From Bacteroidales bacterium (GTDB lineage Bacteria; Bacteroidota; Bacteroidia; Bacteroidales; WRLA01): a stretch of 64,000 nucleotides of DNA. The number at the start of each line of letters is the position of its first letter. The first letter of the stretch is position 1. The stretch is taken from NCBI GenBank assembly GCA_009777825.1, contig WRLA01000001.1:12852-76851 (forward strand). The letters are read 5' to 3'. Of the stretch, positions 18,001-63,990 are shown one piece after another. The notes below the pieces were generated by a model. The model saw only the letters and a program-made list of their open reading frames with translations. It ran no database searches and was not told the origin of the DNA. A program made the position numbers and the translations under genes.

Positions 18001-21000
18001 CCGATCATCAGGTATTGTCCATCGTTCAAGGTGCCGTTGTTTTGGCTGTTGAGCGTCGGGAGTGTTTGGCTGTTTCCTAAGAAAACGATAACTTTTTCAC
18101 TACCATCCACACTGAGTGATTGTTTTTGGTAAAGTCCGATAGCGTCGTCGCGCCCGATGCCGAATATGTTGTTGCTATATCCGGCACAGTCGGGGTCGTC
18201 TTTATCCCAGATGACAGTGCCGTCGAAGGCTATCCATTGCGGTTGTGCGATGGTATCGAGCATTTGCCCATATTTCACTGCCAAGTAGGTATTGATTTTT
18301 GCCATATCGAGTGGAGCAAAGGGCGTCCCTGCGGGCGCAGACAGAACGATGATTTCCTGAATATCGCCGTAGAAAGGGTTGGAACTGGCGCCGGCTTGTC
18401 TGTTCCCGACAACGGCTCTTGCGCTACCGGCGGTAACGGGTCGGGCAGTTCCGGGAGCGGGAGTCGCTTGTTTGGCATTATGCCACACATAACCGTTTCT
18501 ATCCATGCTGACGATACCAAATCGTTTTGAGGCTCCCGTAGTGGTTGTCAATCCCGGAGTGAAGTTGGTAACCGTTCCATTAGAAAAATAGAGATAGTCG
18601 TTGTTGGTGGCTCCTCTCCATCCTTCATCGAGATTGGCGCCGGTGCGATAGGAAAACAAGGCGCCGTAGGCGGTGGTCCCCGTAAGATTTGCCGTTGACA
18701 CATAAAAAGTACGATAGACGCGTCCCGTATTGGCATACGTTTGGAAGTTATGTTCGGTTACCAACTGTTTGAAAGGCGCTGCAAAACGGACAGCGGGCTG
18801 GAAGTTCATGCCTTCGTCCTTATATATCGGCACGTTTTGTGTTCCGTTGCGCACTAAATCGTTCATGGTTCCCGACTGGTTTGCCCATCGTGTTACCGAC
18901 ATGCCGTCTATGGATTGCGAGCCTGCCCGCATATTGTTGGCGTCGAACCATAATTCTACGGTATAGTTGAGCATGGAGCCATCAATGACAAAGCCGATAT
19001 AGTCGCCGTCTTCTATCTTTACTCCGGTAGCAATGCCATCGTTAACGGCATAAATGCGAGTATCGCTCGGAATAAAATTTGTTGTATTGGAGACTATGAC
19101 GTATTTTGCTTTGAATTTCTGAATCAACAGACTTACGGTAATGTCGCTGTCGTCTCCTGTAAGTTGCGCTTTATAGAGGCGTTGCTGGCGTGTGGCGAAA
19201 GTTTCGTGCGACAGCAGTGCGTTCTCAAACTGCATGTTTGCCGGCGTATAATCCGTGATGCCTTCCTGGTTGTTGGAACCGAGAAGCAGGTAGGTCATGT
19301 TATTCAAAGTTTCCGGATTTTGGCTATTCAGAGTGTATAATTGATTCCCCCGAAAGACAATCAACACAGAATCGTCACTGTTAATCGCCTGACGCTGATA
19401 CAAGCCGGTGGTCTCATCGCGGGCAATACCGAAAATATTGTTGTTATAGCCTGTGTTTGCCGATCTGCTCCATACTATATTGCCTGCCGTATTGATATAA
19501 TCATCATTGTTTTGCAACATGATGCCATATTTGACGGCTAAGTAGGAGTGGATTTTTTGCATATCAATAGCGTCAACATGTTGGTTGTCTGTTCTTTTAA
19601 TCAAGATGACTTCCTGTAACATTCCCCGATAGCCGTACCACGCCTGACTGTTACGACCGCCGCCCAGCGCTACCCTTCCATTTCCGCGATTCGTAGTACC
19701 GTTCCATTGGGCTGTTGCAAAATTGGTTTGTACGCCGTCTTTAAAACACCTGATTCCTTCCTGAACTGCGGTGGCTGTTACATTGACGTTTCCTACGGAA
19801 AGCAATCCTTTTTCTACGGCTCCCAAGGCTCTTGAAGTTGTTCCGGGCCAAGTGTATGTGAGGTTATGATTATTGGCACGCCACGAGATAGCGTTATAGT
19901 TGTCGGTGTTGGTTACACCCATCAGAAAATCATAATACAGAGACGTTGTTACCCGTCGTTGCAATACGAAGATGGTAGTGAAACTCTCCGTCGTAGCGAT
20001 ATCAATAGGCAAGTCCGATAAAAGTTGATTGGGCGCTGAGCCGTTGGCACCCGGTTTTTCAAATAATACGATGGGATGATAGTTGTATCCTGTCGTGTTA
20101 AGTTTGCGTGGTGCCGTTGCCGCGCCGGAGAAGTTGCCTACGCCTTGCTGCATCAGGTTCAGCCAAACGCCGTTGTTATAATTCTCTGACGTGAGCCACG
20201 CAACGACATTGGCGTTGGTGATCCCGCCCGGCATTTTTTCTAACAGGGCAAAGCCGATGTAATCGCCGTCGGCAATTTCGACATTTCTGGCGATTCCGTT
20301 GCCGTCGAGAAGATAGAGGGTAGTGTTTCCCGGAATGAAATCGGGAGCAGACGACACCATTAAATATTTCGCTTTGTAACTGTTCAACTGAAAACTTGTC
20401 GTAACCGAAGCGGCTCCCGTTACTTGCGCATTGTAAACAGCGCTCAGACGGATGTTGAGGTTTTCATCTATGGTCAGATTTGAATAGGGGGTCTCTTTTG
20501 CCCATATATATGGGGTCATGCCGGTCAATCCGTTGGAGCCCAAGAGCATATAGGTCATATCGCTCAAAGTGCCTCCGTTATTGACATTTAAGGGGTATAA
20601 TTGATTATCGAGAAAAGTGGTCAAGGTCTTGTCTTCACGACTTTCTGCCTGCTTTTGATATAAGCCGGTGGCATCGTCGCGCCCGATGCCGAATACATTA
20701 TTGGTGTATCCTGTATGGTTAGAGGATGTCCAAACCATGGTTTCTGCGGAGTTGTAGAGGTCGGGCATGTTGCTCTGATTGAGCGCATGACCGTATTTAA
20801 TGGCTAAATAGGATGTCATGATCTGGTGATCCATCGCCGTGAAAGGAGTGTTCGCCGGCTTTGAGATGATGATGATCTCCTGAATATCGCCGTAGAAAGG
20901 ATTGGTCGCCCCGGCAACTGTCGTTACGCCGATGGTGGCTCTTGTGGCAACGCCGGTAAACGGTCGGGCGGCGCCGGTTGCCGGCGCTGCATTATGCCAC

Positions 21001-21524: not shown

Positions 21525-21938
21525 AAGATTATCCTTTAAAATTTGTTCAAATACACTCACTTTTATTATTTATATACTTTCCTTGTTTTTACGGATTTTG
21601 TCCATAAAAAAAGTGGTGCAAAGTTCGTTCATAAAACCCGAACGGTTATAATATATATCTACCTAAATTTTCTAAAAATATACGGTTTTTTTTAAAAAAA
21701 TATTAATTTTTTAATGAATATTAACAAATTATTCTCAAAAAAATCAATGTCTCAGTGCGGTAAATCCTACTTATACGAAAATTCAATTTTAAAAAAAACG
21801 TTATTATTTTTCATTATATACTCCTTTTTTTTAAACTATAAAATGCGCGATATTCGTGTGAAATTTGCAAAATTGTCCGATTTTTCATACATCCCAACAA
21901 TTCTCAATTTTCAATTCTCAATTTTCAATTATTTTTCG

Positions 21939-21988: not shown

Positions 21989-22061
21989 GCCATCTTAGCT
22001 CAGCTGGTAGAGCAGTTCACTCGTAATGAACAGGTCGTGGGTTCGAGTCCCATGGATGGCT
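21989..22061 (+). tRNA. tRNA-Thr: tRNA-Thr (anticodon CGT)
   Basis: Cloverleaf folded by hand. Acceptor stem GCCATCT/GGATGGC (one U-G pair). D stem GCTC/GAGC. Anticodon stem GTTCA/TGAAC with loop CTCGTAA. T stem GTGGG/CCCAT with loop TTCGAGT. Length 73 nt, no encoded CCA. Confidence 0.9.
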
Positions 22062-24316: not shown

Positions 24317-25330
24317 TTATTCCTTATAAACCACATTCAAAACCACCTCTCCCACGACTTTCAGCGTTTCGGGACTGATGTTCGATATGTCGTCTTTCAA
24401 TGTATGCCAATAGTCCACAAAACTGCCGTTTTTAGAGTCGGGACGAAGATGTATAATGTTGACAGTCGGAATGTTAGCGATTTTATTGATATAGTAATGG
24501 TCGTCGGTGATGGCTGCGCCTTCCGTTTTTGGGAAATAGTCGCCGTATCCGATTTGTTCAGCCATGTCCCACACTTTTTTCACAATCTTGTTGGCATAAT
24601 AATTGGAAAACGCCTCGATGGGAAATTGCGCCTGATGGTCGCCTACCATGTCGAGCAGAATCCCAAACGACGCCTTATAAGCCGGAGCATGAGGCGTTTT
24701 CGCCCAATGTTGCGCACCCAAGCCCCATGTGTCGCTTTCCTGATTTTGCGCATCTTGCGGAGCGCCATAATCTTCGACGTCGAAGAAAATAATGTCCACG
24801 CCGACCTCCGGGCGAGCCAAAGCCATCTGCCGCGCTATTTCGAGCAACACCCCTACTCCACTCGCGCCATCGTTAGCGCCCAAGATGGGCGTTTTATGAT
24901 TGTTTGGGTCGGGGTCGTTATCCGCAAAAGGACGGGAATCCCAATGCGCCGCCAGAAAAATCCGTTTTTGCCTGTCGGGATTGAACGAGCCGATGATATT
25001 CTGCCCGTCGAGGATGGTTCTGTCGAAAGAATAAGTTTTAAACGCCTGTGTTACAACAGTATCGCAAAAACGACTTAACGTTCCGACAAGATATTCCGCA
25101 CACGCCTTCGCCGCCGGAGTATTCGGCACGCGAGGTCCAAAATCAACCTGCCGCCTGACAAAGTTGTAAGCGGAATCCGCATCAAACGGAGGTATAAACC
25201 GTTCTTGTTCAACGACATTCGTCTGCTCTTTTGTGGGCGTTCCTTTTTTTTCTGACGTGCCACCGCAAGAAGTCATTGCAAACATCGCAACGGTGAGAAT
25301 AATTAATACACTTTTATTAGTTGTGTTCAT
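24317..25330 (-). CDS. glutaminyl-peptide cyclotransferase (type II QC, M28 fold), lipoprotein
   Basis: Start at MNTTNKSVLIILTVAMFAMTSCGG (lipobox). The motif FLAAHWDSRPFADND...ILGANDGASGVGVLLEIARQ is typical of Bacteroidota QC/M28 enzymes. The 109 upstream codons of the ORF track run through a palindromic repeat and are rejected. Confidence 0.8.
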   Translation of the reverse strand: MNTTNKSVLIILTVAMFAMTSCGGTSEKKGTPTKEQTNVVEQERFIPPFDADSAYNFVRRQVDFGPRVPNTPAAKACAEYLVGTLSRFCDTVVTQAFKTYSFDRTILDGQNIIGSFNPDRQKRIFLAAHWDSRPFADNDPDPNNHKTPILGANDGASGVGVLLEIARQMALARPEVGVDIIFFDVEDYGAPQDAQNQESDTWGLGAQHWAKTPHAPAYKASFGILLDMVGDHQAQFPIEAFSNYYANKIVKKVWDMAEQIGYGDYFPKTEGAAITDDHYYINKIANIPTVNIIHLRPDSKNGSFVDYWHTLKDDISNISPETLKVVGEVVLNVVYKE

Positions 25331-25339
25331 TTTGCTTAT

Positions 25340-25650
25340 TTTATCCGTTTGCGCCTCCCTCCGGAAGGAGGGAAATTTGGATAACCCCGTGCCAGCATAG
25401 CGCAGCGCGGGGTAAATGAAGTCCCTATCCTCTGAACTCCGTAGGAGTTCAACATTCATCGCTGATAATACAGTTGAACTCCTACGGAGTTCGGTGGGAT
25501 GTGGTTGTAGTTCCCTACCCCGAGCTGCGCTATGCTTGCTCGGGGTTATCCGTGTTTGCCTCCTACGGAGGCTTCCGCTCCTCCTCGTTTCCAACGAGGA
25601 GGCAATGTCGCGCTCGTTTCCGGCGAAAGCGTTGTAATCGTTTATCATGT
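25340..25650. repeat. nested palindromic GC-hairpin element
   Basis: A perfect 20-bp inverted repeat pairs 25434-25453 with 25473-25492. An outer 36-bp inverted repeat pairs 25379-25414 with 25516-25551 (33/36 match). Flanking small hairpins include ccctccggaaggaggg, gcctcctacggaggc and ctcctcgtttccaacgaggag. Confidence 0.85.
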
Positions 25651-25685
25651 CCATCATTTAAATCATTCTAAAATCATCGTTCAGA

Positions 25686-30117: not shown

Positions 30118-30164
30118 AAAAATAGCCCTTAAAATTTAATTCTTAAATTTTAAGGGCTATTTTT
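30118..30164. terminator. bidirectional intrinsic terminator hairpin between dapF and the 16S rRNA
   Basis: A 21-bp perfect stem pairs aaaaatagcccttaaaattta with taaattttaagggctattttt, with a 5-nt loop. A/T runs lie on both sides. Confidence 0.75.
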
Positions 30165-30243: not shown

Positions 30244-31771
<1,528 letters not shown>

Positions 31772-32030: not shown

Positions 32031-32089
32031 ATTTTTTTCATCCCATTTAATTAATTGGGTTCCAATTAATTAAATGGGATGAAAAAAAT
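32031..32089. terminator. 28-bp perfect-stem hairpin (insulating terminator upstream of the rRNA promoter)
   Basis: Left arm atttttttcatcccatttaattaattgg, loop gtt, right arm ccaattaattaaatgggatgaaaaaaat. Every position was paired by hand. Confidence 0.7.
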
Positions 32090-35616: not shown

Positions 35617-38364
35617 TCAATCATTAACTACTTTTGCCGTTTTTTCTCCCGACCGGATGATATACACTCCGCTGACCGACAGGGGAATATTTACCGTTTC
35701 GTCGGTCGCAACGCCTTGATACACAAGTTTTCCCAAGATGTCATACACGCGCCATGTTTCGCCGACGGTGAGTCCGCTGACGTATAGTATTCCGTTTCGG
35801 GTATATGCTTTCAGGGTGTTGGACTGCGAAATTTCGGCAATGCCTACGCCTATCGTAATGCTAAAATCCTGCGTATATTCTATGCCTATTCCCAAGCCAT
35901 TGGCAACGATGGCTCTGACAAGAGCGCTCCCCGCAGCGGTGATGTTTAACGTGTTGACGCCGCTGATATAAGCGCCGGAGCCTCCGGCGTCAATGACTTT
36001 CCAACCAATGTTTTTATAGGTAGCGTTTTCCGGTATAACTGTTCCGGTGAGGAGGAGTGGAACTTTTATCGTTGCTTCTGTGGGAACGTCTATGATGTCG
36101 GTTACGGCAACAAAGTCTTCCGGATTGATGCCGATTTTAAAATCTTTGATGTAGTCTATACCGATTCCTGTGCCGTTTTCGATGATTGCTCTGATGGTTG
36201 CTGTGCCTGTTTTTGTGGTGTTCAGGATATTGCCGTCGGTGATGGTGGCGCCGGTGCCTCCGCCATTCTGTACGCTCCAAACGATGGTTTGGTAGGTAGC
36301 GTCGCTGGGGATGACTGTTCCCGTGAGGGTGAGCGGAACGCCTACCGTAGTCCATTGCGGCACGTTGATAATATCCGTAACGGAAACAAAATCTTCCGGA
36401 TTTATGGCAATGATACAATCTTTAACGAAATCCACACCTAATCCGATGCCTTCTGCGATGGTTGCGGTGATAATTACTGTTCCTATCTCTATGGTATTCA
36501 GGATATTACCGCTGCTAAGCGTAGCGCCGGTGGTTCCTGCCGATTTAATGCCCCAGACGATGGCTTTGTTGGTGGCGTTGTCCGGAACAACCGTACCGGT
36601 GAGCGTGAGCGGTATTCCTACGGTAGTCTCTGTGGGTACATTGATGATGTCTGTTACCGACACAAAGTCTGCCGGATTTACCGCAATGTCAAAATATTGC
36701 TCGTAGTCTTCGCCCTTGCCCAAGCCGTTGGTGATGATGGCGCGGACAACTGCCGTACCTGTTCCGGTGGTATTGAGGGTATTGCCGCCGCTGAGGGTGG
36801 CGCCGGTAGTTCCTGCGTCCAGCAACTCCCATGCAAAGGTTTGGTAGGTGGCGTTGCCCGGAACGACCGTCCCCTTGAGGGTGAGCGGAACGCCTACCGT
36901 AGTCTTTTGAGGTACGTTGATGATCTCCGTTACGGGAATAAATGTGATGATAAGGGTGTCGCATTTTACTATGGTGGCGTCGTTTCCACCCTTTCCTTCG
37001 ATATCTGTCCAGTCGCCGGTGCCGAAAGAACTTTCTGAGGATTGTCCCATCGCAACAAACCCACCGTATATCTGGTCTGCCCAGATATAGTGATCATCAC
37101 CGCTTCCGCCAAAATTTTTTCTCCATTCCATATTACCCGCATTATCATATTTCACCATAATGGCATCGTTACCGCCTTTGCCCATAAAACCGATCCAGTC
37201 GCCGGTGTTGAAAGAACCGGCGCCAGAATATCCCACCGCAACATATCCGTCGGATAGCGCTGTTACTGCAGCATAGCGATCAACAGCATTACCGCCAAAA
37301 TTCTTTTTCCATACTACATTGCCGGCGTGGTCAAGTTTTACAATGATAGCGTCATCGCCGCCTTTTCCCGAAACGCCAGTCCAATCGCCATTGCCGAAAG
37401 AACCGGACTCAGAATACCCCGCTGCAACAACTCCGTCCGATACCGTTGTTACGGAAACAAGAAAATCTGCTCCATTCCCGCCGAAATTCTTTTTCCATAC
37501 CACATTGCCGTTGTTGTCATATTTTACAATAGTGGCGTCTCGACCGCCTTTTTCCGAGATGCCGGTCCAATCGCCATAGCCAACAGAATTGGAATACCCA
37601 GTCGCCACAACTCCGTCCGGCACTGCTGTTACCCATGTATAGGAATCCCAACCTTTTCCGCCCAAACTCTTTTTCCATACCACATTACCGTTGTGGTCAT
37701 ATTTAACAGCAATGGCATCGTGGGTTCCTTTTGCTGAGATGCCTGCCCAATCGCCATTACCGAAAGACGCAGATGCGGAATGTCCCACTGCAACAACCCC
37801 ATCCGATACAGTCGTTACTGCAAAATAGATGTCTTGACCATTTCCTCCAAAATTCTTTTTCCATACCACATCGCCGTTTCGGTCATATTTCACAATAATG
37901 GCGTCTTGCCCTCCTTTTCCCACAACTCCTTCCCAATCGCCGTTGCCGAAAGAATCGAAATCGGAGTATCCTACCGCAACATATCCATCGGATACAGTCG
38001 TTACTGCCCAATAGGCATCATCGCCGTTTCCGCCGAAATTCTTACACCATAGTACATCGCCCTGGATATAAGTTCCATAGCCATAGTTTACAATAATGGC
38101 GTCTCGACCGCCTTTCCCTGCAACATCTTCCCAATCGCCATTACCAAAGGATGCTTCATCAGAGTATCCCACCGCAACAAATCCATCGGCTTTTGACGTT
38201 GCCACAGTTACCGAAGCATAAAAATCATCACCATACCCACCAAAATTATTGTTCCATGCTACATGGTAATCCTGCGCGAAAACAGGTAACGATGAAAAAA
38301 GAAAAACCAGTCCCGTTAACATAACAGAGACTGCAATAAACCGTAATTTTTTAAATCGTTCCAT
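35617..38364 (-). CDS. T9SS cargo protein: 7 SBBP-type beta-propeller repeats, 4 Ig-like repeats and a T9SS C-terminal sorting domain
   Basis: Signal peptide ...SSLPVFA|Q. Seven ~60-aa repeats read NFGGNG.D.Y.AVTTVSDG.VAVGYS...SFGNGDW.G..GKGG.DAIIVKYD.NGNVVWKK. Four ~93-aa repeats read VTDIINVP..TTVG.PLTLTGTV.P..AT...I.W. The C-terminus is ILYVSGLTVGETWRVYDILGKLVYQG...GVYIIRSGEKTAKVV. Confidence 0.8.
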   Translation of the reverse strand: MERFKKLRFIAVSVMLTGLVFLFSSLPVFAQDYHVAWNNNFGGYGDDFYASVTVATSKADGFVAVGYSDEASFGNGDWEDVAGKGGRDAIIVNYGYGTYIQGDVLWCKNFGGNGDDAYWAVTTVSDGYVAVGYSDFDSFGNGDWEGVVGKGGQDAIIVKYDRNGDVVWKKNFGGNGQDIYFAVTTVSDGVVAVGHSASASFGNGDWAGISAKGTHDAIAVKYDHNGNVVWKKSLGGKGWDSYTWVTAVPDGVVATGYSNSVGYGDWTGISEKGGRDATIVKYDNNGNVVWKKNFGGNGADFLVSVTTVSDGVVAAGYSESGSFGNGDWTGVSGKGGDDAIIVKLDHAGNVVWKKNFGGNAVDRYAAVTALSDGYVAVGYSGAGSFNTGDWIGFMGKGGNDAIMVKYDNAGNMEWRKNFGGSGDDHYIWADQIYGGFVAMGQSSESSFGTGDWTDIEGKGGNDATIVKCDTLIITFIPVTEIINVPQKTTVGVPLTLKGTVVPGNATYQTFAWELLDAGTTGATLSGGNTLNTTGTGTAVVRAIITNGLGKGEDYEQYFDIAVNPADFVSVTDIINVPTETTVGIPLTLTGTVVPDNATNKAIVWGIKSAGTTGATLSSGNILNTIEIGTVIITATIAEGIGLGVDFVKDCIIAINPEDFVSVTDIINVPQWTTVGVPLTLTGTVIPSDATYQTIVWSVQNGGGTGATITDGNILNTTKTGTATIRAIIENGTGIGIDYIKDFKIGINPEDFVAVTDIIDVPTEATIKVPLLLTGTVIPENATYKNIGWKVIDAGGSGAYISGVNTLNITAAGSALVRAIVANGLGIGIEYTQDFSITIGVGIAEISQSNTLKAYTRNGILYVSGLTVGETWRVYDILGKLVYQGVATDETVNIPLSVSGVYIIRSGEKTAKVVND

Positions 38365-38731: not shown

Positions 38732-38765
38732 CTCTGTATTGCTTCACTTCGTTCGCAATGACGGG
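38732..38765. repeat. M2 repeat module (ctctgtattgcttcacttcgttcgcaatgacggg)
   Basis: Reverse complement of 63719-63755, with 2-3 differences. Confidence 0.7.
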
Positions 38766-38840
38766 ACGGGGCAATTTTGTCATATACCCTTAAAAAAGCT
38801 GTTTGCAAAAATCGGGATAGACTTTACTGTAAACCTCAGT

Positions 38841-45664: not shown

Positions 45665-46747
45665 TTACATTTTCACCACCTTCCCATTCCCAACAACCCG
45701 CCCCTCCGAAAGAACGCTAACACCATAAACCCCTTGCGGCAAATGGCTGATGTTTATTTCGATGGGCGATTGTCCGATTTCCGATTTCCGAAATTCCCCT
45801 CCTTTGGAGGGGGCAGGGGGTGGTGTGATTTGCGATTGTAGAGACGGGGCGCGCCCCGTCTCTACGGGGGCAACGGTCAACACATTTCTACCCATCACAT
45901 CGAAAATTACGATTTCCGATTGTCCGATGTCCGACATCCGATTATCGCACGTCGCAAATCGCAAATCGCAAATCGCAAATACCCCACTCGTCGGATTCGG
46001 ATACATCCGCACACCCCCCCCTTCGGGGGGGCTTGGGGGGGCTATGCCCATGTTTACATCTTCAATATGAAACTCTTTCCAAACGTCGGCGGTCTGGTAG
46101 GCGGAGATGGCGTCTGTCGGCACTTTCAGCGTGCAGGCGGATTGATTTACATCTTCAAATACTTCGAACGTTATCTCAACGGGTACAGGATTTAGATTGG
46201 TTATTGAAGTAAGAGCGGTGCAACCGGCAAAGGCTCCATAGGAAATATCTGTAACGCTGTTTGGAATGGTAACATATTTGAGAGCGGTGCAATTTTTAAA
46301 AGCATCCACTTCAATAGCTGTTACGCTGTTTGGGATGGCAATAGATTTAAGAGCGGTGCAAGCGGCAAAGTCCCCATATTTAATTGCTGTAATGCTGTTT
46401 GGAAGGGTAATAGATTCGAGGGCGGTGCACAAGTAAAAAGCGTAATATCCAATCGTTGTAACGCTGTTTGGAATGGTTATTGAAGTAAGTTTTTCGCAAA
46501 CGCGAAAAGCGTCATTTCCAATCTTTGTAACGCCGTTTTCTATGATCACGGTAACGATAGATTTTCGATAATCATACCACGGCGCCCAAATATCCCACTC
46601 ATAATCCGGCATCTCCCCCTCCCCACTGATAGTGAGCGTGCCGTCGTTCAATTCCCACGTCAGTGGACCTGTCATCCCGCTTTGCGCGAATGTGCTTGAT
46701 ACGTTCAGCAGCATGGTTAATGCTAAAATGGTGAGATGTTTCTTCAT
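45665..46747 (-). CDS. BspA-type leucine-rich repeat protein with T9SS C-terminal sorting domain interrupted by repeat-derived inserts
   Basis: Signal peptide ...VSSTFA|Q. Five or more LRR_5 units read IPNSVT.I...AF..CTAL.S(I/V)T. The CTD pieces YPNPTSGVF, IVIFDVMGRNVL and INISHLPQGVYGVSVLSEGRVVGNGKVVKM are separated by two inserts. Confidence 0.8.
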   Translation of the reverse strand: MKKHLTILALTMLLNVSSTFAQSGMTGPLTWELNDGTLTISGEGEMPDYEWDIWAPWYDYRKSIVTVIIENGVTKIGNDAFRVCEKLTSITIPNSVTTIGYYAFYLCTALESITLPNSITAIKYGDFAACTALKSIAIPNSVTAIEVDAFKNCTALKYVTIPNSVTDISYGAFAGCTALTSITNLNPVPVEITFEVFEDVNQSACTLKVPTDAISAYQTADVWKEFHIEDVNMGIAPPSPPEGGGVRMYPNPTSGVFAICDLRFATCDNRMSDIGQSEIVIFDVMGRNVLTVAPVETGRAPSLQSQITPPPAPSKGGEFRKSEIGQSPIEINISHLPQGVYGVSVLSEGRVVGNGKVVKM

Positions 46748-51410: not shown

Positions 51411-52508
51411 TTATATTAAGTATTTAACTGCATTTGTACTATGAACTGAAATTTGAGCCGCAAAGTTACTAAAATTTTGCTTTAAAATGTCTAATAAAAT
51501 TGATGTTGCAAATTGTTCTGTTTCGTAGTGTCCGGCGTCAACCAAAAGCATCTTTTTGTCGGGTGTGAAAAAGTCGTGATATTTGAGGTCGGCGGTGATA
51601 AAGACGTCGGCGTTTCGTTCTAATGCTGAATGGATTAGGAAACTGCCCGACCCGCCGCACAACGCCACCTTGCGCACCTGTTTTCCGATAAAACCGGAAT
51701 GACGCAAAACCGGAATATTCAAAATTTGTTTTAATCGGAGCAGAAAATCTTTTTCGTCCATCGGTTCGGGCAACGTGCCTATGACGCCGATTCCTGCCTG
51801 TCCCGTCGTGTTTTCCAACTGATAGAGGTCGTAAGCCGGCTCCTCGTAGGGATGCGCCGCCACAAGAGCCGCCACCACCTGCCGCCGCAGATAAGTCGGA
51901 AAGACGGTCTCGATGCGATGTTCCTTCTCGGTATGATATTTCCCGACTTCGCCCACGAAAGGGTGCGTCTGCTCGCCGGCGCGAAACGTCCCTTCGCCCT
52001 CGACCGCGAAACTGCAAAAGTCGTAATTGCCGATACAGCCCGCTCCCGCCGCAAAGATGGCTTCACGTACTTTCTGCGTGTGCTGCACAGGAACGAAAGT
52101 TACAAGTTTCGACAACTGATGCTGTTGCGGCGACAAAATGGCACTCTCTTGTAATCCGATTTTTCTTGCCAAGATGTGGTTTACGCCGTCGGGCGCGTTG
52201 TCAAGGTTGGTATGCGCGGCGTAAACGGCGATGTTGTGGGCGATTGCTTGCCGTATCATCCGACCGGTCGGGTCGTGAGGGTTTATCTTCTTTATCCCGC
52301 TGAAAATCAAAGGATGGTGCGTGAGAATAAGATTGAAACCACCGTCAATGGCTTCCTGCAAAACAGTTTCGGTAAGTTCTAACGCAATGAGAACGCCGTT
52401 TGCCGTATCGTCCTCATTACCAATCAATAAACCCACATTGTCCCACTCTTCGGCATAAGCACGCGGAGCGCTCTTTTCAATAACCTGAATGATGTCTTTA
52501 ATGGTCAT
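51411..52508 (-). CDS. Nif3-like dinuclear metal centre protein
   Basis: 365 aa. Motifs are WDNVGLLIG, LTHHPLIF, AAHTNLD and a C-terminal DAGHYETE. Confidence 0.85.
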   Translation of the reverse strand: MTIKDIIQVIEKSAPRAYAEEWDNVGLLIGNEDDTANGVLIALELTETVLQEAIDGGFNLILTHHPLIFSGIKKINPHDPTGRMIRQAIAHNIAVYAAHTNLDNAPDGVNHILARKIGLQESAILSPQQHQLSKLVTFVPVQHTQKVREAIFAAGAGCIGNYDFCSFAVEGEGTFRAGEQTHPFVGEVGKYHTEKEHRIETVFPTYLRRQVVAALVAAHPYEEPAYDLYQLENTTGQAGIGVIGTLPEPMDEKDFLLRLKQILNIPVLRHSGFIGKQVRKVALCGGSGSFLIHSALERNADVFITADLKYHDFFTPDKKMLLVDAGHYETEQFATSILLDILKQNFSNFAAQISVHSTNAVKYLI

Positions 52509-52553
52509 AAATTATAATGTAAATGTATGGCGCGAAGTTACAAATAAAATTCC

Positions 52554-52561
52554 TATCTTTG
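52554..52561 (+). promoter_or_regulatory. -7 promoter box TATCTTTG
   Basis: Lies 30 nt upstream of the ATG at 52591. Confidence 0.5.
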
Positions 52562-52590
52562 CAACTGTAAATTTATTAAATATAATTACA

Positions 52591-55239
52591 ATGAAAAAAT
52601 TCTTATTATGTATGCTCATCGCAGGTTTAACGATACCTGCCATAGCACAGGTTGAAGTCGGATTATGGAAATCCGCAGGTGTTTCGGAAAGTTATGACCG
52701 TCAAAGTCAAGGCTCGGTTTACCCGATGACCCAACGGCATGACGACGGTTTTATCGGATGTACGTGGACGAATGAGGATAATTATCCATTTGACGGAAGC
52801 AGCACTCCGTTGAGAGGCGTCGGCTACTCTTATTCGACGGATGGAGGATTTACCTGGAGTTGGAACGATCCGGGCAATCCGGACTACCAACAAAACAGAG
52901 TCGGCGGAATACCGGTATATTGGCCCTCGTATGCGCAATGGGGCGCTAACGGAGAAGCCATTCTTGCCCGAAGCGCTGATGATTACGAGTATAATGGCGT
53001 ACAAATTGTAAATGGTCTTGTATTGATGACGCGCCCGAATAAAGGTCAAGGCGAGTGGACAATTACTCCCGTTCCATATCCCGAAGGAAATTATACTCCC
53101 GGTGTTAATGCTGTTATGGCATGGGCGCGCATGACCACCAGCGGACCAAATCATCAATATATCCATATCATGTCGCCGATGAGAACGCCTTTGTATGATC
53201 TTATGAAACATCCGGTATATTATTACAGAACACAAAATGGGACAACATGGGACATCGAAGCCGCATTGGTAACGGAGATGATAGGTCAAGACTGGGGTCA
53301 AGATTATACATACACCGACGGAATTGATCTCGCCGTGCGTGGAAATACTGTGGCATGTTCATTTATGTCTTTGGGGGAGCATGGGTATGTGTTAAAATCA
53401 CAAAATAACGGAGATACGTGGGAGTGTATCAAATTTTTTGATTCCCCTATTCGCAACGATGTAACGCCCGCCATGTATGCCGACACCGTCTATATCCCCA
53501 AGCAAGGATGTATAGCATTGGATAACAATGGAAAAATCCATGTTGCTTTTTCAGTGATAATGTCTCTAAATACCGATTCGGGAGTCAACTATTATTTAGG
53601 AATGTTCACATCTTTCCTCTCTTATTGGAATGAAAACATGGCGCCGATTGATGGGGCTACCGATTTTGTTAAACATGAAATAGATCCGTTATTGGAAAAC
53701 TATTTCGATTGGGATCTATCGTATGATTATTACTACTATGTGAATTCCAAATTTCCTACATGGCCCATTGTCGGATATTTTACACCGCTATATGATGATC
53801 ATTATTTTAACATAGACCCTTCTATAATTACTGATTGGGTAGGAACAAGTTACGGTAGCGCCGGCGGTTTTTCATTTCCGCAAATGACAGTTGACGATGA
53901 CAACAATGTGCGGTTGATTTACTTGGGATTAGTAGATAACGGATATTACAATAGCCGTTGGCTCCGTCATCCCTTTTACACCGTCTCTTACAATGGAGGG
54001 CAGAACTGGACAAAGACGGAATATCTTGTAAATTACGTTGCGATGATTGATCAAGAATTTGCCTATTTGACATTAGCAGGCTTCGGCGAAGACCGGATGT
54101 ATATGGTGGCGCAAACGGATCCTTTTCCGGGCACTCATGAGCCATACACAAATCCCAATATTTCTGAGCATGGAGCAGTACCTAACAATTACACTTTTTT
54201 CACTGTCGGCGGAACTTTACCGCCGCCACCGCCGGCTTGCGACCCCGTAACCAATGCCGCAGCAACCATCGAAGATGACTGCACATCGGCAACCATCACC
54301 TGGACACCCGTGGACGGCGCCGTAGAGTATGAAATCCGAAGAAACAACGTTACTTTAGCCAAAGTTACCGCGCCGCCTTATACCGACAACTTCAATTTTA
54401 TCAATGGGACGACATACACATGGAGCATTAAAACCATTTGCGAAGAGAACGAATCGTGGTTTACGTCCGTCTCCGTAACCGCCGACTGTGCCGTTTGCGA
54501 CCCCGTAACCAACGCAAAAGCCCAAATCGAAAACTGCGCCAAAGCAACCCTCACATGGAACGCCGTAGCCGGCGCCAAAGAGTACGAAATCAGACGAGAC
54601 GGCAACCTATTAGATAAAGTTACGACGACCGTTTTTGTCGAAACCGCCGAGTTCGAAAACGGAAAATCCTACATTTGGACGATAAAAGCCATTTGCAACA
54701 AAGAATCTGCCGTCGAAGTCCCCGCCTCCGCAACCGCCGACTGCGAAGTGTGCGACCCCGTAACAGACGCACAAGCCCAAATCGAAAGTTGCACCACAGC
54801 AACCATCACCTGGACAGCCGTAGCCAACGCCAAAGGATATGAAGTCAGAAGAGACGGCAACCTGCTGGGAACAGTTACCACGCCCATATTTGCTGAAACC
54901 GCCGACTTTGAACACGGGAAAACCTACATCTGGCGGATAAAAACCATCTGCAACAAAACCGCATCCGGAGAAATCTCCGCCTCCGCAATTGCCGACTGCA
55001 CAGGAATTACCGAACTCGCCAATAGCGTTGTCATCTACCCCAACCCATCCAATACCTCTGTAACCATCACCGCCAAAAACTTCGCCAAAGTGGAAATTTA
55101 CAACACCATCGGACAACTGATAGCAACGACAACAGAAAATATTGTTGACGTATCACACTATAACACAGGGATTTATCTCTTCAAAGTCTATGACGCCGAC
55201 GGAAATAGCGTTACTAAACGGGTGATGGTTTCGAGGTAA
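52591..55239 (+). CDS. T9SS cargo protein: BNR/Asp-box beta-propeller-like region, 3 Fn3-like repeats and a T9SS C-terminal sorting domain
   Basis: Start at MKKFLLCMLIAGLTIPAIA|Q. Asp-boxes are YSTDGGFTW, SQNNGDTW and SYNGGQNW. Three ~85-aa repeats begin CDPVT(N/D)A.A.IE at 54238, 54496 and 54751. The CTD is VVIYPNPSNTSVTI...VEIYNTIGQLI...GIYLFKVYD. Confidence 0.8.
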   Translation: MKKFLLCMLIAGLTIPAIAQVEVGLWKSAGVSESYDRQSQGSVYPMTQRHDDGFIGCTWTNEDNYPFDGSSTPLRGVGYSYSTDGGFTWSWNDPGNPDYQQNRVGGIPVYWPSYAQWGANGEAILARSADDYEYNGVQIVNGLVLMTRPNKGQGEWTITPVPYPEGNYTPGVNAVMAWARMTTSGPNHQYIHIMSPMRTPLYDLMKHPVYYYRTQNGTTWDIEAALVTEMIGQDWGQDYTYTDGIDLAVRGNTVACSFMSLGEHGYVLKSQNNGDTWECIKFFDSPIRNDVTPAMYADTVYIPKQGCIALDNNGKIHVAFSVIMSLNTDSGVNYYLGMFTSFLSYWNENMAPIDGATDFVKHEIDPLLENYFDWDLSYDYYYYVNSKFPTWPIVGYFTPLYDDHYFNIDPSIITDWVGTSYGSAGGFSFPQMTVDDDNNVRLIYLGLVDNGYYNSRWLRHPFYTVSYNGGQNWTKTEYLVNYVAMIDQEFAYLTLAGFGEDRMYMVAQTDPFPGTHEPYTNPNISEHGAVPNNYTFFTVGGTLPPPPPACDPVTNAAATIEDDCTSATITWTPVDGAVEYEIRRNNVTLAKVTAPPYTDNFNFINGTTYTWSIKTICEENESWFTSVSVTADCAVCDPVTNAKAQIENCAKATLTWNAVAGAKEYEIRRDGNLLDKVTTTVFVETAEFENGKSYIWTIKAICNKESAVEVPASATADCEVCDPVTDAQAQIESCTTATITWTAVANAKGYEVRRDGNLLGTVTTPIFAETADFEHGKTYIWRIKTICNKTASGEISASAIADCTGITELANSVVIYPNPSNTSVTITAKNFAKVEIYNTIGQLIATTTENIVDVSHYNTGIYLFKVYDADGNSVTKRVMVSR

Positions 55240-55294: not shown

Positions 55295-55314
55295 TATTAT
55301 TGATAATCAACAAA

Positions 55315-57102
55315 ATGAACAAATTACCAAAGTTGGAAAGTTTGACGGTAGAGTTTAAAACGTCGTTTAATGAGGATGTTATTGAGACGCTTGTGGCGTT
55401 CTCCAACGCAAAAGGGGGAACGGTCTATGTTGGCGTTTCCGACAATGGGAAAGCGTTGGGAATAACCGTTGGGAAAGAGACCGTTCAACAGTGGATTAAC
55501 GAAATAAAAAATAAGACGAGCCCACAAATAATTCCTGATGCGGAGGAGTTAACCATTGATAACAAAACAATTGTGTCATTATTTATTCAAGAATATCCGA
55601 TAAAACCGGTTTCGACAAGGGGGAAATATTATAAGCGTGTCGGCAATTCCAATCATTTGCTTTCTGTAATGGAAGTGGCAAACATGCACTTGCAAACGGT
55701 AAATTCGAGTTGGGATTATTATCCGCGTCCCAATAAAACGATTGATGATATTTCGTTGGAAAAAGTGCAAAAAGTAATGAACATCATCAGGCGCAGAGAT
55801 GACAATTTTCACTTTGAGAGCGTGGAGGAATTTCTTATAAAGAACGAATTGCTTTTTGAAGACAATCGAATTTCAAATGGCTGTTTTTTAATGTTTTCCA
55901 AAGAGGAGAACTTATATACAACAGTGCAGATGGGGCATTTCGCATCCGAAATCGTCATCAAAGACGATGTGGTAAATTCGGACGATATTTTAACTCAAAT
56001 TGACGAAGTCATGCTGTTTATCCGAAAACATATAAGCAAAGAACTGATAATCACCAACACCCAAATCGAAAATATCCAACGCTGGCAGTATCCGCTCGAC
56101 GCTCTACGGGAAATAGTTCTAAATATGATCATCCACCGTGATTACATGGCGTCCTCTAATTCGATTATTAAAATTTTCCCCGACCGTATATTGTTTTTCA
56201 ATCCGGGAACTTTACCCGACTCCATCACCATCGAACAACTGAAAACCAACCAGTATATTTCTACCCCGCGAAACCGGCAAATAGCCAAAATGGCAAAAGA
56301 AATGGGCATAATAGAACGTTATGGAACCGGCGTCAGAAGAGTTAGAAATATGTTTATTGAGTACGGATTGGAAGAACCTCAATATGAAATGATATCGGGC
56401 GGCATGGCAGTTACGGTTTTTGGACTGGTATTTGAAGAGGAAAATAGTGCGTTTTCGACTGCTGAGACTGTGGAGAAAGAGGGAGAAAACAACACAATAA
56501 ACAACACAATAAACAACACAATAAACAACACAATAAAACTGCATAGAAATCAACAAATAATTATTAAAGAAATTGAAAACAACCCATATATTACCTCGGA
56601 AGAATTATCTAATATTGTTGGTATAACCGCTGATAATGTTAGAGTAAACTTGTCCAGACTTAAAGCCAAGGGTATGATTGAACGTATTGGTACAAGAAAA
56701 AAAGGTTACTGGAATGTAATAGGAAAGGGGACAAAAGAAAAGAGTTCGGAGAAAAGTTCGGATAAGAGTTCGGATAAAATTGTGGAGAAAGAGGGAGAAA
56801 ACAACACAATAAACAACACAATAAACAACACAATAAACAACACAATGAACAACACAATAAACAACACAATAAAACTGCATAGAAATCAACAAATAATTAT
56901 TAAAGAAATTGAAAACAATCCATATATTACCTCGGAAGAATTATCTAATATTGTTGGTATAACCGCTGATAATGTTAGAGTAAACTTGTCCAGACTTAAA
57001 GCCAAGGGCATGATTGAACGTATTGGTACAAGAAAAAACGGTTATTGGAATATAACAGGAAAGGGAACAGAAAGCAATAAAATCAATATAAAATATCAAT
57101 AA
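55315..57102 (+). CDS. AlbA_2 (Schlafen-like) / HATPase_c_4 / duplicated winged-helix protein (putative ATP-binding transcriptional regulator)
   Basis: The AlbA_2 part is ESLTVEFKTSFNEDVIETLVAFSNAKGGTVYVGVSDNGKALG. The HATPase_c_4-like part is REIVLNMIIHRDY...RNRQIAKMAKEMGIIERYGTGVRRV. Two copies of a wHTH module follow (IIKEIENNPYITSEELSNIVGITADNVRVNLSRLKAKGMIERIG). Confidence 0.8.
   Translation: MNKLPKLESLTVEFKTSFNEDVIETLVAFSNAKGGTVYVGVSDNGKALGITVGKETVQQWINEIKNKTSPQIIPDAEELTIDNKTIVSLFIQEYPIKPVSTRGKYYKRVGNSNHLLSVMEVANMHLQTVNSSWDYYPRPNKTIDDISLEKVQKVMNIIRRRDDNFHFESVEEFLIKNELLFEDNRISNGCFLMFSKEENLYTTVQMGHFASEIVIKDDVVNSDDILTQIDEVMLFIRKHISKELIITNTQIENIQRWQYPLDALREIVLNMIIHRDYMASSNSIIKIFPDRILFFNPGTLPDSITIEQLKTNQYISTPRNRQIAKMAKEMGIIERYGTGVRRVRNMFIEYGLEEPQYEMISGGMAVTVFGLVFEEENSAFSTAETVEKEGENNTINNTINNTINNTIKLHRNQQIIIKEIENNPYITSEELSNIVGITADNVRVNLSRLKAKGMIERIGTRKKGYWNVIGKGTKEKSSEKSSDKSSDKIVEKEGENNTINNTINNTINNTMNNTINNTIKLHRNQQIIIKEIENNPYITSEELSNIVGITADNVRVNLSRLKAKGMIERIGTRKNGYWNITGKGTESNKINIKYQ
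56470..57099 (+). repeat. tandem duplication (312 bp and ~318 bp) of the wHTH module, containing 12-bp AACAACACAATA microsatellites
   Basis: GTGGAGAAAGAGGGAGAAAAC starts at both 56470 and 56782. NNTI-coding 12-mers occur as 4 units at 56488-56535 and 6 units at 56800-56871. The wHTH parts differ at only a handful of bases. Confidence 0.9.
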
Positions 57103-62515: not shown

Positions 62516-62525
62516 AAAAAATGTT

Positions 62526-62570
62526 TTAGCACGCAGATGACGCAGATTTAATAGATTAACGTGGATTTTA
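62526..62570 (+). repeat. GCAGAT-run element, copy 2
   Basis: Sequence ttagcacgcagatgacgcagatttaatagattaacgtggatttta, 11 nt after the A2M stop. The first 25 nt are identical to 2806-2830. Confidence 0.7.
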
Positions 62571-62879: not shown

Positions 62880-62907
62880 CAAAAATTTTCAAATATACGA
62901 ATCCTTT

Positions 62908-62974
62908 ATCATCCCCATCATTCAAATCACCCTAAAATTTATACTGAGCCATGTCGAAGTATCACAGTTCAGAC
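62908..62974. repeat. P-module repeat (atcatccccatca.t.aaatcaccctaaaat...cacag.tcagac)
   Basis: Copies at 63631-63672 and 63805-63846. A degenerate copy lies at 25650-25685. This copy carries a 23-nt insert. Confidence 0.7.
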
Positions 62975-63303
62975 TACAAGAATTGTGCTATTACATGATT
63001 ATTTGCAATATAGCGGACCAGATAGATTGTTTCGCCGTTATTGAGATATTTGGTGAAGAATACGTACCATGTTGTGCGTTTGTTTTTTCTGAAAAAGGTG
63101 TAATACATACCTTTTCCGTATTTGTCGAAATGTGGCGGGGCGGGTCTGTGTTGGCGTGTTGGGAGGTCTGCCATAATGTCGTCAATCAAACTTTCAACAT
63201 AGTTGTGTGCAGCGCTCTCAAATACGAAATACCCATTTTCATAAAGAATCGGGACAAGCTCGTCTAAATATTCCTGTACTTTTGGTATAAATATTACTGA
63301 CAT
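62974..63303 (-). CDS. hypothetical protein, possible toxin partner
   Basis: 109 aa, 2 nt downstream of a Phd-like small ORF. No family recognised by eye. Confidence 0.5.
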   Translation of the reverse strand: MSVIFIPKVQEYLDELVPILYENGYFVFESAAHNYVESLIDDIMADLPTRQHRPAPPHFDKYGKGMYYTFFRKNKRTTWYVFFTKYLNNGETIYLVRYIANNHVIAQFL

Positions 63304-63628: not shown

Positions 63629-63990
63629 AATCATCCCCATCACTCAAATCACCCTAAAATCACAGTTCAGACAATTTTTGCGATGTGCGATGTGAGACTG
63701 TGAGACACAAGACGCTGTGTCCCGTCATTGCGAACGAAGTGAAGCAATCCAGAGAGTTTTTCAGCACAGAGACGCAGGGAACACAGAGGTTCACAGAGTC
63801 TTTATCATCCCCATCCCTTAAATCACCCTAAAATCACAGCTCAGACAATTTTTGCGATGTGCGATGTGCGATGTGAGACTGTCAGACACAAGACGTTTAG
63901 ACATACGGAATGCTGTTTGGAAATAGCGCCCTTTGCGTAAACCTTTTGCGTCTTTGCGTTTAATGATTTTCTAACGCAAAGACGCAAAGG
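63629..63990. repeat. dense mosaic repeat block (P+M1, M2, M3, P+M1, gcaaag hairpin)
   Basis: 63629-63713 is P+M1. 63714-63755 is M2. 63756-63799 is M3. 63800-63895 is a second P+M1 with one extra gcgatgt unit. 63946-63987 is the hairpin ttgcgtctttgcgtt/aacgcaaagacgcaa. Confidence 0.8.

Follow-up and report, generated by a model that had tools for sequence, protein, structure and literature searches.

Hairpin-forming palindromes and heptanucleotide arrays read in frame within the type IX secretion signal of a Bacteroidales leucine-rich repeat protein

We analysed a stretch of 64,000 nucleotides (nt) from a Bacteroidales bacterium (GCA_009777825.1, contig WRLA01000001.1, positions 12,852 to 76,851), hereafter the window, and in it a gene encoding a leucine-rich repeat (LRR) protein that ends in a type IX secretion system (T9SS) C-terminal sorting domain (CTD). 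The 3′ end of this LRR-CTD gene holds three segments of repeat DNA that are translated as part of the protein. In our view these segments are probably repeats of a non-coding type, selfish or mutational in nature, which the protein can bear because the signal domain is disposable and its loops are permissive. The evidence comes from the anatomy of the segments, their place in the predicted fold, their turnover between close relatives, and the distribution of the same kinds of repeat in other CTDs and in unrelated genes.

An initial annotation of the window had proposed that repeat-derived pieces sit in frame at three places in this protein. This is the case, as the length of each piece is a multiple of 3 and all three lie within the open reading frame (ORF) 45665-46747(-). 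Insert 1 (45914-45976(-)) is read as the peptide AICDLRFATCDNRMSDIGQSE, insert 2 (45764-45871(-)) as APVETGRAPSLQSQITPPPAPSKGGEFRKSEIGQSP, and the piece at the junction between the LRR passenger and the CTD (46013-46051(-)) as MGIAPPSPPEGGG. The building blocks named at that time, a 28-bp palindrome, a hairpin and heptamer runs, are likewise present (Table 1), and Tandem Repeats Finder places arrays of period 7 at 45767-45791, 45910-45942 and 45944-45980, with 3.4, 4.6 and 5.3 copies. In the junction element, a direct half-repeat (C7-AAG) precedes a C7-GAA-G8 hairpin (46014-46031; fold z = -2.0). Each segment is free of stop codons in 4-5 of the 6 frames, and the heptamer units of the window in all six, so the open frame through the segments is partly intrinsic to units that are poor in stops.

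The place of the segments in the protein was examined by structure prediction. An AlphaFold2 (AF2) model built on 50 homologues reached a mean predicted local distance difference test score (pLDDT) of 85, and modelling the C-terminal 187 residues separately gave a concordant result. The predicted CTD strands lie at residues 245-249 (GVRMY), 256-261 (VFAICD), 278-282 (EIVIF), 288-292 (NVLTV), 330-332, 339-347 and 350-359, and the loops of low confidence at 235-242, 262-277 and 293-329, pLDDT falling below 50 at 235-242, 299-311 and 316-326. According to these models, the segments occupy the linker between passenger and CTD and the first two inter-strand loops. The question whether the inserts fall in loops is thus answered in the affirmative, with the exception of the heptamers that encode the VFAICD block, whose pLDDT is 87.

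This exception shows that the boundary first drawn for insert 1 was wrong. Its first heptamers encode VFAICD, a core strand in the AF2 model, and the proposed excision therefore takes out too much: it leaves 2 residues where relatives have 11-13, the present protein having 23. At the position of insert 2, relatives have 11-15 residues, with a range of 11-57. The claim that a canonical CTD remains once the inserts are removed holds insofar as a genuine CTD is interrupted by the segments; the trimmed version itself is over-trimmed, its TIGR04183 score rising only from 19.3 to 20.6 bits, below the cut-off of 23. TIGR04183 is the one model whose threshold the LRR-CTD protein fails to reach. Pfam PF18962 matches its C-terminus with 33.9 bits against a cut-off of 27, in two separate stretches, as fits an interrupted CTD. 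Furthermore, a profile of the CTD family matches solved T9SS CTDs (8glk_D with E = 1.5e-10, and also 8glj_D, 8qb1, 5hfs and 5ag8), and the best Foldseek match of the CTD in the Protein Data Bank (PDB) is again 8glk_D, a substrate CTD in a translocon complex (probability 1.00, target-normalised template modelling score 0.71, 109 alignment columns for a 75-residue target), with the RgpB CTD (7pq4) in third place. A match of the peptide CDLRFATCDN to TGF-beta receptor II in a single-sequence PDB search (E = 0.5) was rejected as chance.

To follow the segments at the DNA level we used three close relatives for which DNA was available: L001, which encodes P0002 and is 90% identical in amino acids to the window protein; L252, a termite-gut metagenome sequence encoding P0121; and L002, which encodes P0084 and is 55% identical overall, with an almost identical CTD tail. 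P0121, like the further homologue P0123, came from a protein search with the CTD only (at least three matches). At the palindrome site, L252 and L002 carry the centre CGGCATGCCA, which includes a compensated change of a G.C to an A.T pair, and L001 carries a different hairpin, GGGGCGACC-CTTGC-GGTCGCCCC. The junction hairpin has a GAA loop in both the window and L252; in L001 the loop reads TTC, exactly the reverse complement of GAA, so that the hairpin or its loop is inverted there. At the same place L002 has a GTAGAGACG...CGTCTCTAC palindrome. The PSKGGE hairpin of insert 2 is longer in L252 by 26+28 = 54 nt, symmetrically around the same AAA loop, and a corresponding longer PSKGGE peptide is seen at the protein level in another homologue, P0005. 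L002 lacks 45 nt comprising this hairpin and the TCGGAAA heptamer run, an in-frame difference; its insert 1 differs by two different 21-nt indels (three units each), and its AATCGCA run after the palindrome is longer. There is an in-frame bias in these changes, as all indels among the four alleles are multiples of 3 and none of the alleles is frame-shifted at a repeat. Orthologues that carried the segments as conserved protein sequence would have spoken against a repeat origin. In the alignment, hairpins differ between alleles that are 90-95% identical, so the orthologues do not conserve the sequence of the segments, which are repeat-derived DNA.

The mosaic CTD is also found apart from its passenger. 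P0005 (MCL2042037.1) carries the same mosaic CTD on a different and longer passenger; it is probably from the same metagenome-assembled genome (MAG) as the window protein, since its accession is near MCL2040446.1, the NCBI entry with which the window protein is identical (a 'leucine-rich repeat protein' of a Bacteroidales MAG). Between the window and L002, the synonymous divergence (dS) reaches 0.70 over the LRR part, compared with 0.15 for the CTD tail and 0.20 for insert 2. The lower dS of the CTD tail indicates that the CTD was exchanged between paralogues after their passengers had diverged.

Selection was estimated by the Nei-Gojobori method, as the ratio of non-synonymous to synonymous divergence (dN/dS). 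In the comparison of the window with L001, the LRR part gives 0.21 (dS 0.10) and the CTD core pieces with synonymous differences 0.1-0.4. Insert 2 gives about 1.0-1.3 (1.04 for window against L001) and the junction more than 1 (window against L001), estimates for inserts that rest on 16-37 codons. The passenger is therefore under purifying selection and the peptide of insert 2 is unconstrained, evolving neutrally. Decay of the gene, which would have undermined the initial annotation, is not apparent in the window: the ORF is intact and its LRR part is maintained by selection.

A comparison across the CTD family leads to the same three sites. In 33 CTDs parsed from LRR homologues, spacer 1 (the insert 1 position) measures 11-26 residues and spacer 2 (the insert 2 position) 11-57, with repeat-type peptides in both. 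Among 52 CTD-bearing LRR homologues, all 17 palindrome peptides (17/17) are at CTD sites: the junction has 9 of them and the two spacers 4 each, and the passenger domains of these 52 contain none. Two frames of the palindrome have no stop and give the peptides VETxxxxSLQ and xRDxxxxVST; the third has a TAG. The 7-nt arrays can even encode strands: in L123, (GAATTAG)n arrays encode those on either side of YPNP, and the unit due to give an in-frame TAG reads TAC; L119 has (ATCCGAT)n arrays together with the AATCGGAAATCGAAATAAAC lead-in to IEINISHL seen in the window. The CTDs of L120, L124 and L122 are without 7-nt periodicity, as are two other T9SS proteins of the window, 35617-38364(-) and 52489-55239(+), which have short, uninterrupted spacers. 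The picture of inserts simply added to a canonical CTD therefore does not hold, as spacers of normal length are often heptamer-encoded (L123, L119) and palindromes can replace stretches of equal length.

Beyond this gene, the initial annotation had called for a genome-wide count of the elements inside ORFs. Our census was run on 2.07 Mb of fetched related DNA and not on the source genome; in addition, a scan of a genome collection with the CTD alignment gave 13 loci. The window palindrome belongs to a dispersed family of the pattern GTAGAGACG-N10-CGTCTCTAC, found in at least 116 stretches of viral contigs and at least 120 of metagenome contigs. Among the matches listed, 133/152 viral and 118/132 metagenomic copies have a 10-nt centre that is self-complementary if one mismatched pair is allowed. 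Most copies, all of those seen being singletons, are in short junk ORFs, that is, in intergenic DNA, and about a quarter of the listed metagenomic ones (34/132) are in ORFs of at least 250 residues. Four of the 132 lie in T9SS CTDs of unrelated proteins of 566-1560 residues: two at the junction (L201, L223), one in spacer 1 (L174) and one in spacer 2 (L193).

Many in-frame copies lie outside CTDs. Pfam backs seven palindrome copies in six genuine proteins, inside or between domains (Table 1). The glycoside hydrolase family 2 (GH2) enzyme of L225 (6268-10131(-)) carries GRDEARPVST in its TIM-barrel domain and VETGRAPSLRE in an Ig-like domain, the latter copy having the same centre as the window palindrome. 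P0124 (L152 1-1848(-)), a fragment of an Eco57I-like / DUF7149 methylase from a termite-gut metagenome, holds four 28-nt palindromes, two in each open frame, and also the hairpin peptide SPKGGGQFPPFGGTKGG. All these elements are in loops that are short in relatives of about 70% identity; these relatives are without the palindromes, and P0131 has other family members in the same loops. Period-7 arrays behave likewise: of 181 in the 2.07 Mb, 119 fall outside any ORF or in a short one, and 50 fall in ORFs that reach at least 250 residues, among them an NqrF-type reductase, a histidine-kinase ATP-lid, a non-ribosomal peptide synthetase and phage proteins. Two homologous phage proteins (750 and 738 residues) have different arrays at the same site, VENGKLKIE from TCAATTT units in L021 (8074-8098) and LTVDNGQLTI from AATTGTC units in L073 (11481-11512), which shows turnover of arrays in a loop of a phage protein. 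The elements are thus mostly intergenic and occur in frame in many unrelated proteins, and treating their placement as a matter of the CTD was too narrow.

Within the window itself, the statement that the DNA of the inserts is also seen in the intergenic mosaics is only partly right. The tgcgatt/cgcaaat unit recurs in mosaics at 2093, 63679 and 63853, and, at the level of the family, hairpins of the CCTCC-N-GGAGG class recur in the intergenic mosaic at 25354-25571 (4 seen against 0.13 expected). The 28-bp palindrome and the tcggaaa/tcggaca run have no second copy in the window; relatives of the palindrome turned up in other data sets only. The other period-7 arrays of the window are confined to four intergenic sites (2077, 21898, 63679 and 63853).

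Several further observations concern these mosaics as such. Those at 2080-2230, 2805-2850, 38732-38767, 62520-62570, 62900-62980 and 63630-63990 have blocks in common: 2131-2172 pairs with 63757-63798 (90%) and 38732-38767 with 63719-63754 (97%) in inverted orientation, 2805-2850 with 62525-62570 (87%) in direct orientation, and 63630-63697 with 63804-63871 (94%). The listed ORF 24317-25657(-) runs through the hairpin mosaic at 25350-25650; since the Pfam match to M28 peptidases starts far into this ORF, the gene must begin later than listed, with the mosaic on its 5′ side. A (CAATTCT)n array at 21898-21930 is just upstream of a tRNA gene (21989-22061); read on the opposite strand, its unit is of the AGAATTG/GAATTGA type, from which ELRIEN peptides are translated in related CTDs.

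The mechanism that we propose would start with the colonisation of the 3′ end of the gene by repeats of two kinds, independent of each other: GC-rich elements, which are short hairpins or palindromes, and tandem 7-nt arrays. One of the GC-rich elements belongs to the dispersed GTAGAGACG-N10-CGTCTCTAC family, and the others are of the C7-GAA-G8 and CCCCTCC-AAA-GGAGGGG type. Elsewhere both kinds are mostly intergenic and build the mosaics of the window. Extra residues in the linker and in the first two inter-strand loops would leave the beta-sandwich undisturbed, and selection for the downstream CTD strands, needed for export, would purge frame shifts and stops, so that only stop-free units and length changes in multiples of 3 are seen. 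The segments are unstable at the DNA level: hairpins are replaced, inverted or symmetrically expanded, heptamer runs change by three units at once, and the whole mosaic CTD is also copied between paralogous LRR genes. Heptamers would arise by polymerase slippage. Palindromes may spread by hairpin-dependent transposition, copying or template switch, and their conserved arms and self-complementary centres do suggest hairpin-dependent copying or transposition. Type-A CTDs are cleaved off after export, which would make the CTD an especially harmless site, as the extra peptides would never reach the mature surface protein. Coupled, nested growth of hairpins and arrays was considered and, for the unbiased samples, rejected (5 cases observed within 30 nt against 2.8 expected). 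Palindromes are not significantly closer to arrays than random positions are, so their co-occurrence in the CTD reflects shared tolerance and not a coupled mechanism.

A number of points weigh against the tolerance of repeat DNA in an otherwise functional signal. Besides the small codon samples behind the dN/dS of the inserts, the junction palindrome swaps for a stretch of equal length (VGI-VETLRATSLQ-VYPNP versus VGI-EPIEADVVK-IYPNP), a substitution that fits replacement or conversion as well as insertion. We found no high-identity pair of an empty and a filled site for the palindrome, so insertion as an event, like any target duplication, is something we infer and have not seen. A scheme in which 28 nt plus a 2-nt target duplication give +30 nt was tried on the P0124 methylase and rejected: the net changes against relatives of about 70% identity, in loops that have diverged, are +4, +5, +6 and +10 residues, and no duplication can be read. 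No transposase or other mobilising enzyme was identified, none being evident in the window and no search aimed at RAYT (REP-associated tyrosine transposase)/Y1 enzymes having been made. In the unbiased samples, the enrichment of CTDs among coding sites draws on small numbers (4/132 listed palindromes and 1/~165 arrays). Finally, two of the three close relatives carry disruptive lesions. In L001, a TAT to TAA change in the CTD (2088-2093; GVY to GV*) is followed by homologous sequence that goes on downstream, and in L252 a 1-nt deletion in the LRR cap (about 895-905) splits the gene call.

These lesions mean that relaxed selection may contribute and that there may be some decay in this gene lineage. 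Given them, decay is the rival to be taken most seriously, even if we judge it unlikely as the full explanation, and it is weaker, like all the rivals below, than the tolerance of repeats in permissive loops. On the decay account, repeats piled up under relaxed selection on the CTD and the open frame is a by-product of stop-poor repeats; the stop-free frames of the segments, the dN/dS of about 1 in insert 2 and the sub-threshold TIGR04183 score all agree with it. Against this, the window ORF is intact and has a signal peptide, the LRR part and the CTD core are under purifying selection, all indels in the four alleles are multiples of 3, and the CTD is well packed in the AF2 model. Large intact proteins of other organisms, moreover, carry the same elements at the same CTD sites.

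It is quite improbable that the heptamer arrays serve as a phase-variation switch, in which the CTD would go out of frame whenever a single 7-nt unit is gained or lost, so that the LRR adhesin would be exported or anchored in one state and not in the other. The idea has its appeal, as the unit length is no multiple of 3, the arrays are upstream of essential C-terminal strands and the protein is a putative surface adhesin; surface adhesins are often phase-variable. Known phase-variable loci have a long perfect tract and frame-shifted alleles, and here no array has more than 3-4 identical units, all of them being degenerate and short. Their copy number is the same in the window, L001 and L252, and L002 differs by exactly 21 nt; none of the four alleles is shifted at a repeat, and the known lesions (the L001 TAA and the L252 LRR-cap deletion) fall outside the arrays.

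There is also a slim chance that the hairpins are kept for a role in RNA or DNA, be it mRNA stabilisation, translational pausing before the CTD folds or the binding of a protein. The structures are indeed very stable. As a single strand, insert 1 folds into one long imperfect hairpin (dG -34.6 kcal/mol, z = -4.7), and the 28-bp palindrome, with a fold z of -5.6, is matched by 0/100 shuffles; furthermore, palindrome centres vary yet stay self-complementary, one pair being compensated between alleles. Perfect palindromes would, however, also result from hairpin-templated repair or transposition without any selection. Close relatives have unrelated hairpins or none at the same site, the same elements turn up in intergenic DNA and, within unrelated genes, in loops of no particular kind, no Rfam family falls on the elements and a terminator and promoter scan gave no such signal.

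That the segments are ancestral, conserved protein sequence of a CTD subfamily, with a coincidental likeness to repeats, is highly improbable: insert 1 and part of insert 2 are common to the window, L001 and L252, and partly to L002, but such sharing is inherited within one young group of paralogues and orthologues, unrelated elements occupy the same sites across homologues (11-57 residues), the palindrome family is found in hundreds of unrelated loci, and heptamer periodicity is a property of DNA. An assembly artefact or chimera is scarcely conceivable, for although the sequence comes from a MAG and assemblies are prone to errors at repeats, the mosaic CTD is found in four independently assembled contigs from three data sets (an NCBI MAG, two contigs of ENA ERZ27257302, and JGI 3300002462, the latter two being termite-gut data sets), with a shared architecture and allele-specific differences.

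Among known repeats, the initial annotation had likened the inserts to Rickettsia palindromic elements (RPEs), known from that genus, about 150 bp long, grouped into ten sequence families and coding for a conserved peptide (PMC10969869). The analogy holds for palindromic repeats that are both intergenic and tolerated in frame in unrelated genes at positions compatible with the fold (PMC10969869), here the loops of the CTD and of GH2, TatD, Der, histidine-kinase and methylase proteins. Membership in the RPEs does not follow from it. Instead of pieces of about 100-150 bp with a conserved peptide, we find pieces of 18, 18, 28 and about 70 nt, of two unrelated kinds, 18-28-nt hairpins (peptides of about 10 residues) and 7-nt arrays, which size and description set apart from RPEs. 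They occur in Bacteroidales, where several unrelated pieces cluster at set positions of a single small domain, and they show turnover among alleles that are nearly identical. Given the different phylum and size, sequence kinship to RPE families is unlikely.

The palindromes also resemble repetitive extragenic palindromes (REPs), bacterial interspersed mosaic elements (BIMEs) and REP doublets forming hairpins (REPINs). These are short, GC-rich, extragenic palindromes in mosaic clusters, which reportedly expand when new copies land in or beside older ones, and they have been proposed to be non-autonomous mobile DNA (PMC3116915, PMC2884548). The likeness lies in short GC-rich palindromes that form mosaic clusters; here most copies are in short junk ORFs and about a quarter of the listed metagenomic ones in ORFs of at least 250 residues. 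REPs, however, are extragenic by definition and typically inverted doublets beside a RAYT gene, whereas single, perfect palindromes are found here inside ORFs. Small dispersed repeats (SDRs; Elhai et al. 2008, as cited in PMC2884548 and PMC5861425) of cyanobacteria are comparable in being very small, at about 20 bp, dispersed or tandem and suspected of mobility (PMC2884548); SDR5 inserts at another short palindrome, HIP1, and SDRs were found only in Nostocaceae (PMC5861425).

As to the arrays, they consist of head-to-tail 7-nt units in at least 3 copies, like the heptanucleotide simple sequence repeats (SSRs; for example TAACTGA and GGGAATC) described as mostly intergenic in Bacteroidetes and Cyanobacteria, inverted array pairs included (PMC4679880, PMC4692102). 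Such arrays are attributed to polymerase slippage (PMC4679880 citing Mrazek et al. 2007; PMC4692102). Both are tandem and mostly intergenic. The published arrays vary between close relatives; here the copy number is identical in the window, L001 and L252, and L002 differs by 21 nt, or three units. Published arrays are under-represented in coding DNA, and genes are expected to be free of units whose length is no multiple of 3; here, by contrast, degenerate arrays are translated as 7-residue periodic peptides, and even as CTD beta-strands, which is not described there. Some surface-protein genes of S. aureus hold up to seven in-frame variable segments (PMC2884548), alike in being small, in frame and concentrated in surface-protein genes; those are mostly codon-periodic repeats of the gene's own sequence, and not pieces of genome-wide hairpins and heptamers in a secretion signal. 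In the literature we found no description of this palindrome or of repeats inside T9SS CTDs, the matches to the palindrome arms being primers.

Table 1. Coordinates of the LRR-CTD gene and its repeat segments in the window, and proteins elsewhere that host the palindrome
Feature	Coordinates	Strand	Remarks
LRR-CTD gene	45665..46747	-	360 aa; signal peptide, BspA-type LRR_5 domain, LRR cap, T9SS CTD
T9SS type-A CTD, beta-sandwich	45668..46015	-	aa 245-360; Pfam PF18962 and AF2
Junction element, passenger-CTD linker	46013..46043	-	encodes APPSPPEGGG, aa 236-245
Core CTD strand VFAICD	45965..45982	-	aa 256-261; first TTGCGAT heptamers; predicted by AF2
'Insert 1'	45910..45980	-	inverted pair of 7-nt arrays, (TTGCGAT)n versus (AATCGGA/GTCGGAC)n
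Structurally extra part of insert 1, loop LRFATCDNRMSDIGQS	45917..45964	-	aa 262-277; low pLDDT; longer than in relatives
'Insert 2', predicted disordered loop	45761..45871	-	aa 293-329; between strands NVLTV and IEI
Perfect 28-bp palindrome GTAGAGACG-GGGCGCGCCC-CGTCTCTAC	45838..45865	.	read as VETGRAPSL(Q)
Short AATCGCA heptamer run	45824..45837	-	QSQI; directly after the palindrome
Hairpin CCCCTCC-AAA-GGAGGGG (sense strand), CCCCTCCTTTGGAGGGGG	45796..45813	.	read as PSKGGE; CCTCC-N-GGAGG class
TCGGAAA heptamer run	45767..45791	-	FRKSEIGQS; runs into the IEINISHL strand
Palindrome host L225			GH2 beta-galactosidase; two copies
Palindrome hosts L150, L186			TatD hydrolases
Palindrome host L198			Der/EngA linker
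Palindrome host L223			histidine-kinase HATPase_c domain
Palindrome host L192			SdhA/FrdA-type flavoprotein

The LRR-CTD protein begins with a candidate signal peptide, MKKHLTILALTMLLNVSSTFAQ, judged by eye and modelled as a hydrophobic helix at residues 2-17, and its BspA-type LRR_5 region spans residues 61-179 (Pfam, E = 2.7e-36). The neighbouring genes encode a KilA-N protein and a PemK/MazF toxin.

Other features of the window are recorded here for completeness. Two long, AT-rich, perfect inverted repeats at 30118-30164 and 32031-32089, with arms of 22 and 28 nt and a 3-nt gap, bracket the 16S rRNA gene (30244-31771, minus strand); they may act as processing stems, or have another role. 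The giant ORF at 6003-21560(-), of 5185 residues, includes four 996-nt tandem repeats (7607-12276), and its C-terminus is dockerin-like (GDVNGDMKIDEKDY...DLTGDKGINSADF) and not a T9SS CTD. The protein at 55300-57102(+) has Schlafen AlbA_2, HATPase_c_4 and winged-helix domains; its gene shows a 336-nt tandem duplication, repeats at 56457-57072, and in-frame 12-nt repeats, (AACAACACAATA)n, that encode NNTINNTINNTI.

A broader proposal is possible, and we hold it only tentatively: that the GTAGAGACG-N10-CGTCTCTAC palindromes are an undescribed family of ultra-small mobile elements in Bacteroidota-type genomes and phages, which routinely settle in frame as loop peptides of about 10 residues (VETxxxxSLQ or xRDxxxxVST), with T9SS CTDs as preferred safe harbours where palindromes and 7-nt arrays pile up and are even recruited as CTD strands. 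If true, these palindromes would be a miniature, large-scale counterpart of RPEs.

For the T9SS, the finding means that three positions of the signal take from 0 to more than 40 extra, unconstrained residues, a guide to the engineering of cargo tags and to the parts of the CTD that the translocon reads. It also accounts for odd low-complexity peptides that recur in Bacteroidales annotations (VETRxxxSLQ, CRDAINRVST, IENGELRIEN and PSFGG) and that can break profile matches, as with the TIGR04183 score below cut-off and the split Pfam domain. The turnover among near-identical alleles, by inversion, symmetric expansion and replacement, provides natural material on the mutation of palindromes in vivo. 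More generally, repeats of a non-coding type can live in functional bacterial genes, which is then not peculiar to Rickettsia and extends to 7-nt arrays that were expected to be excluded from them.

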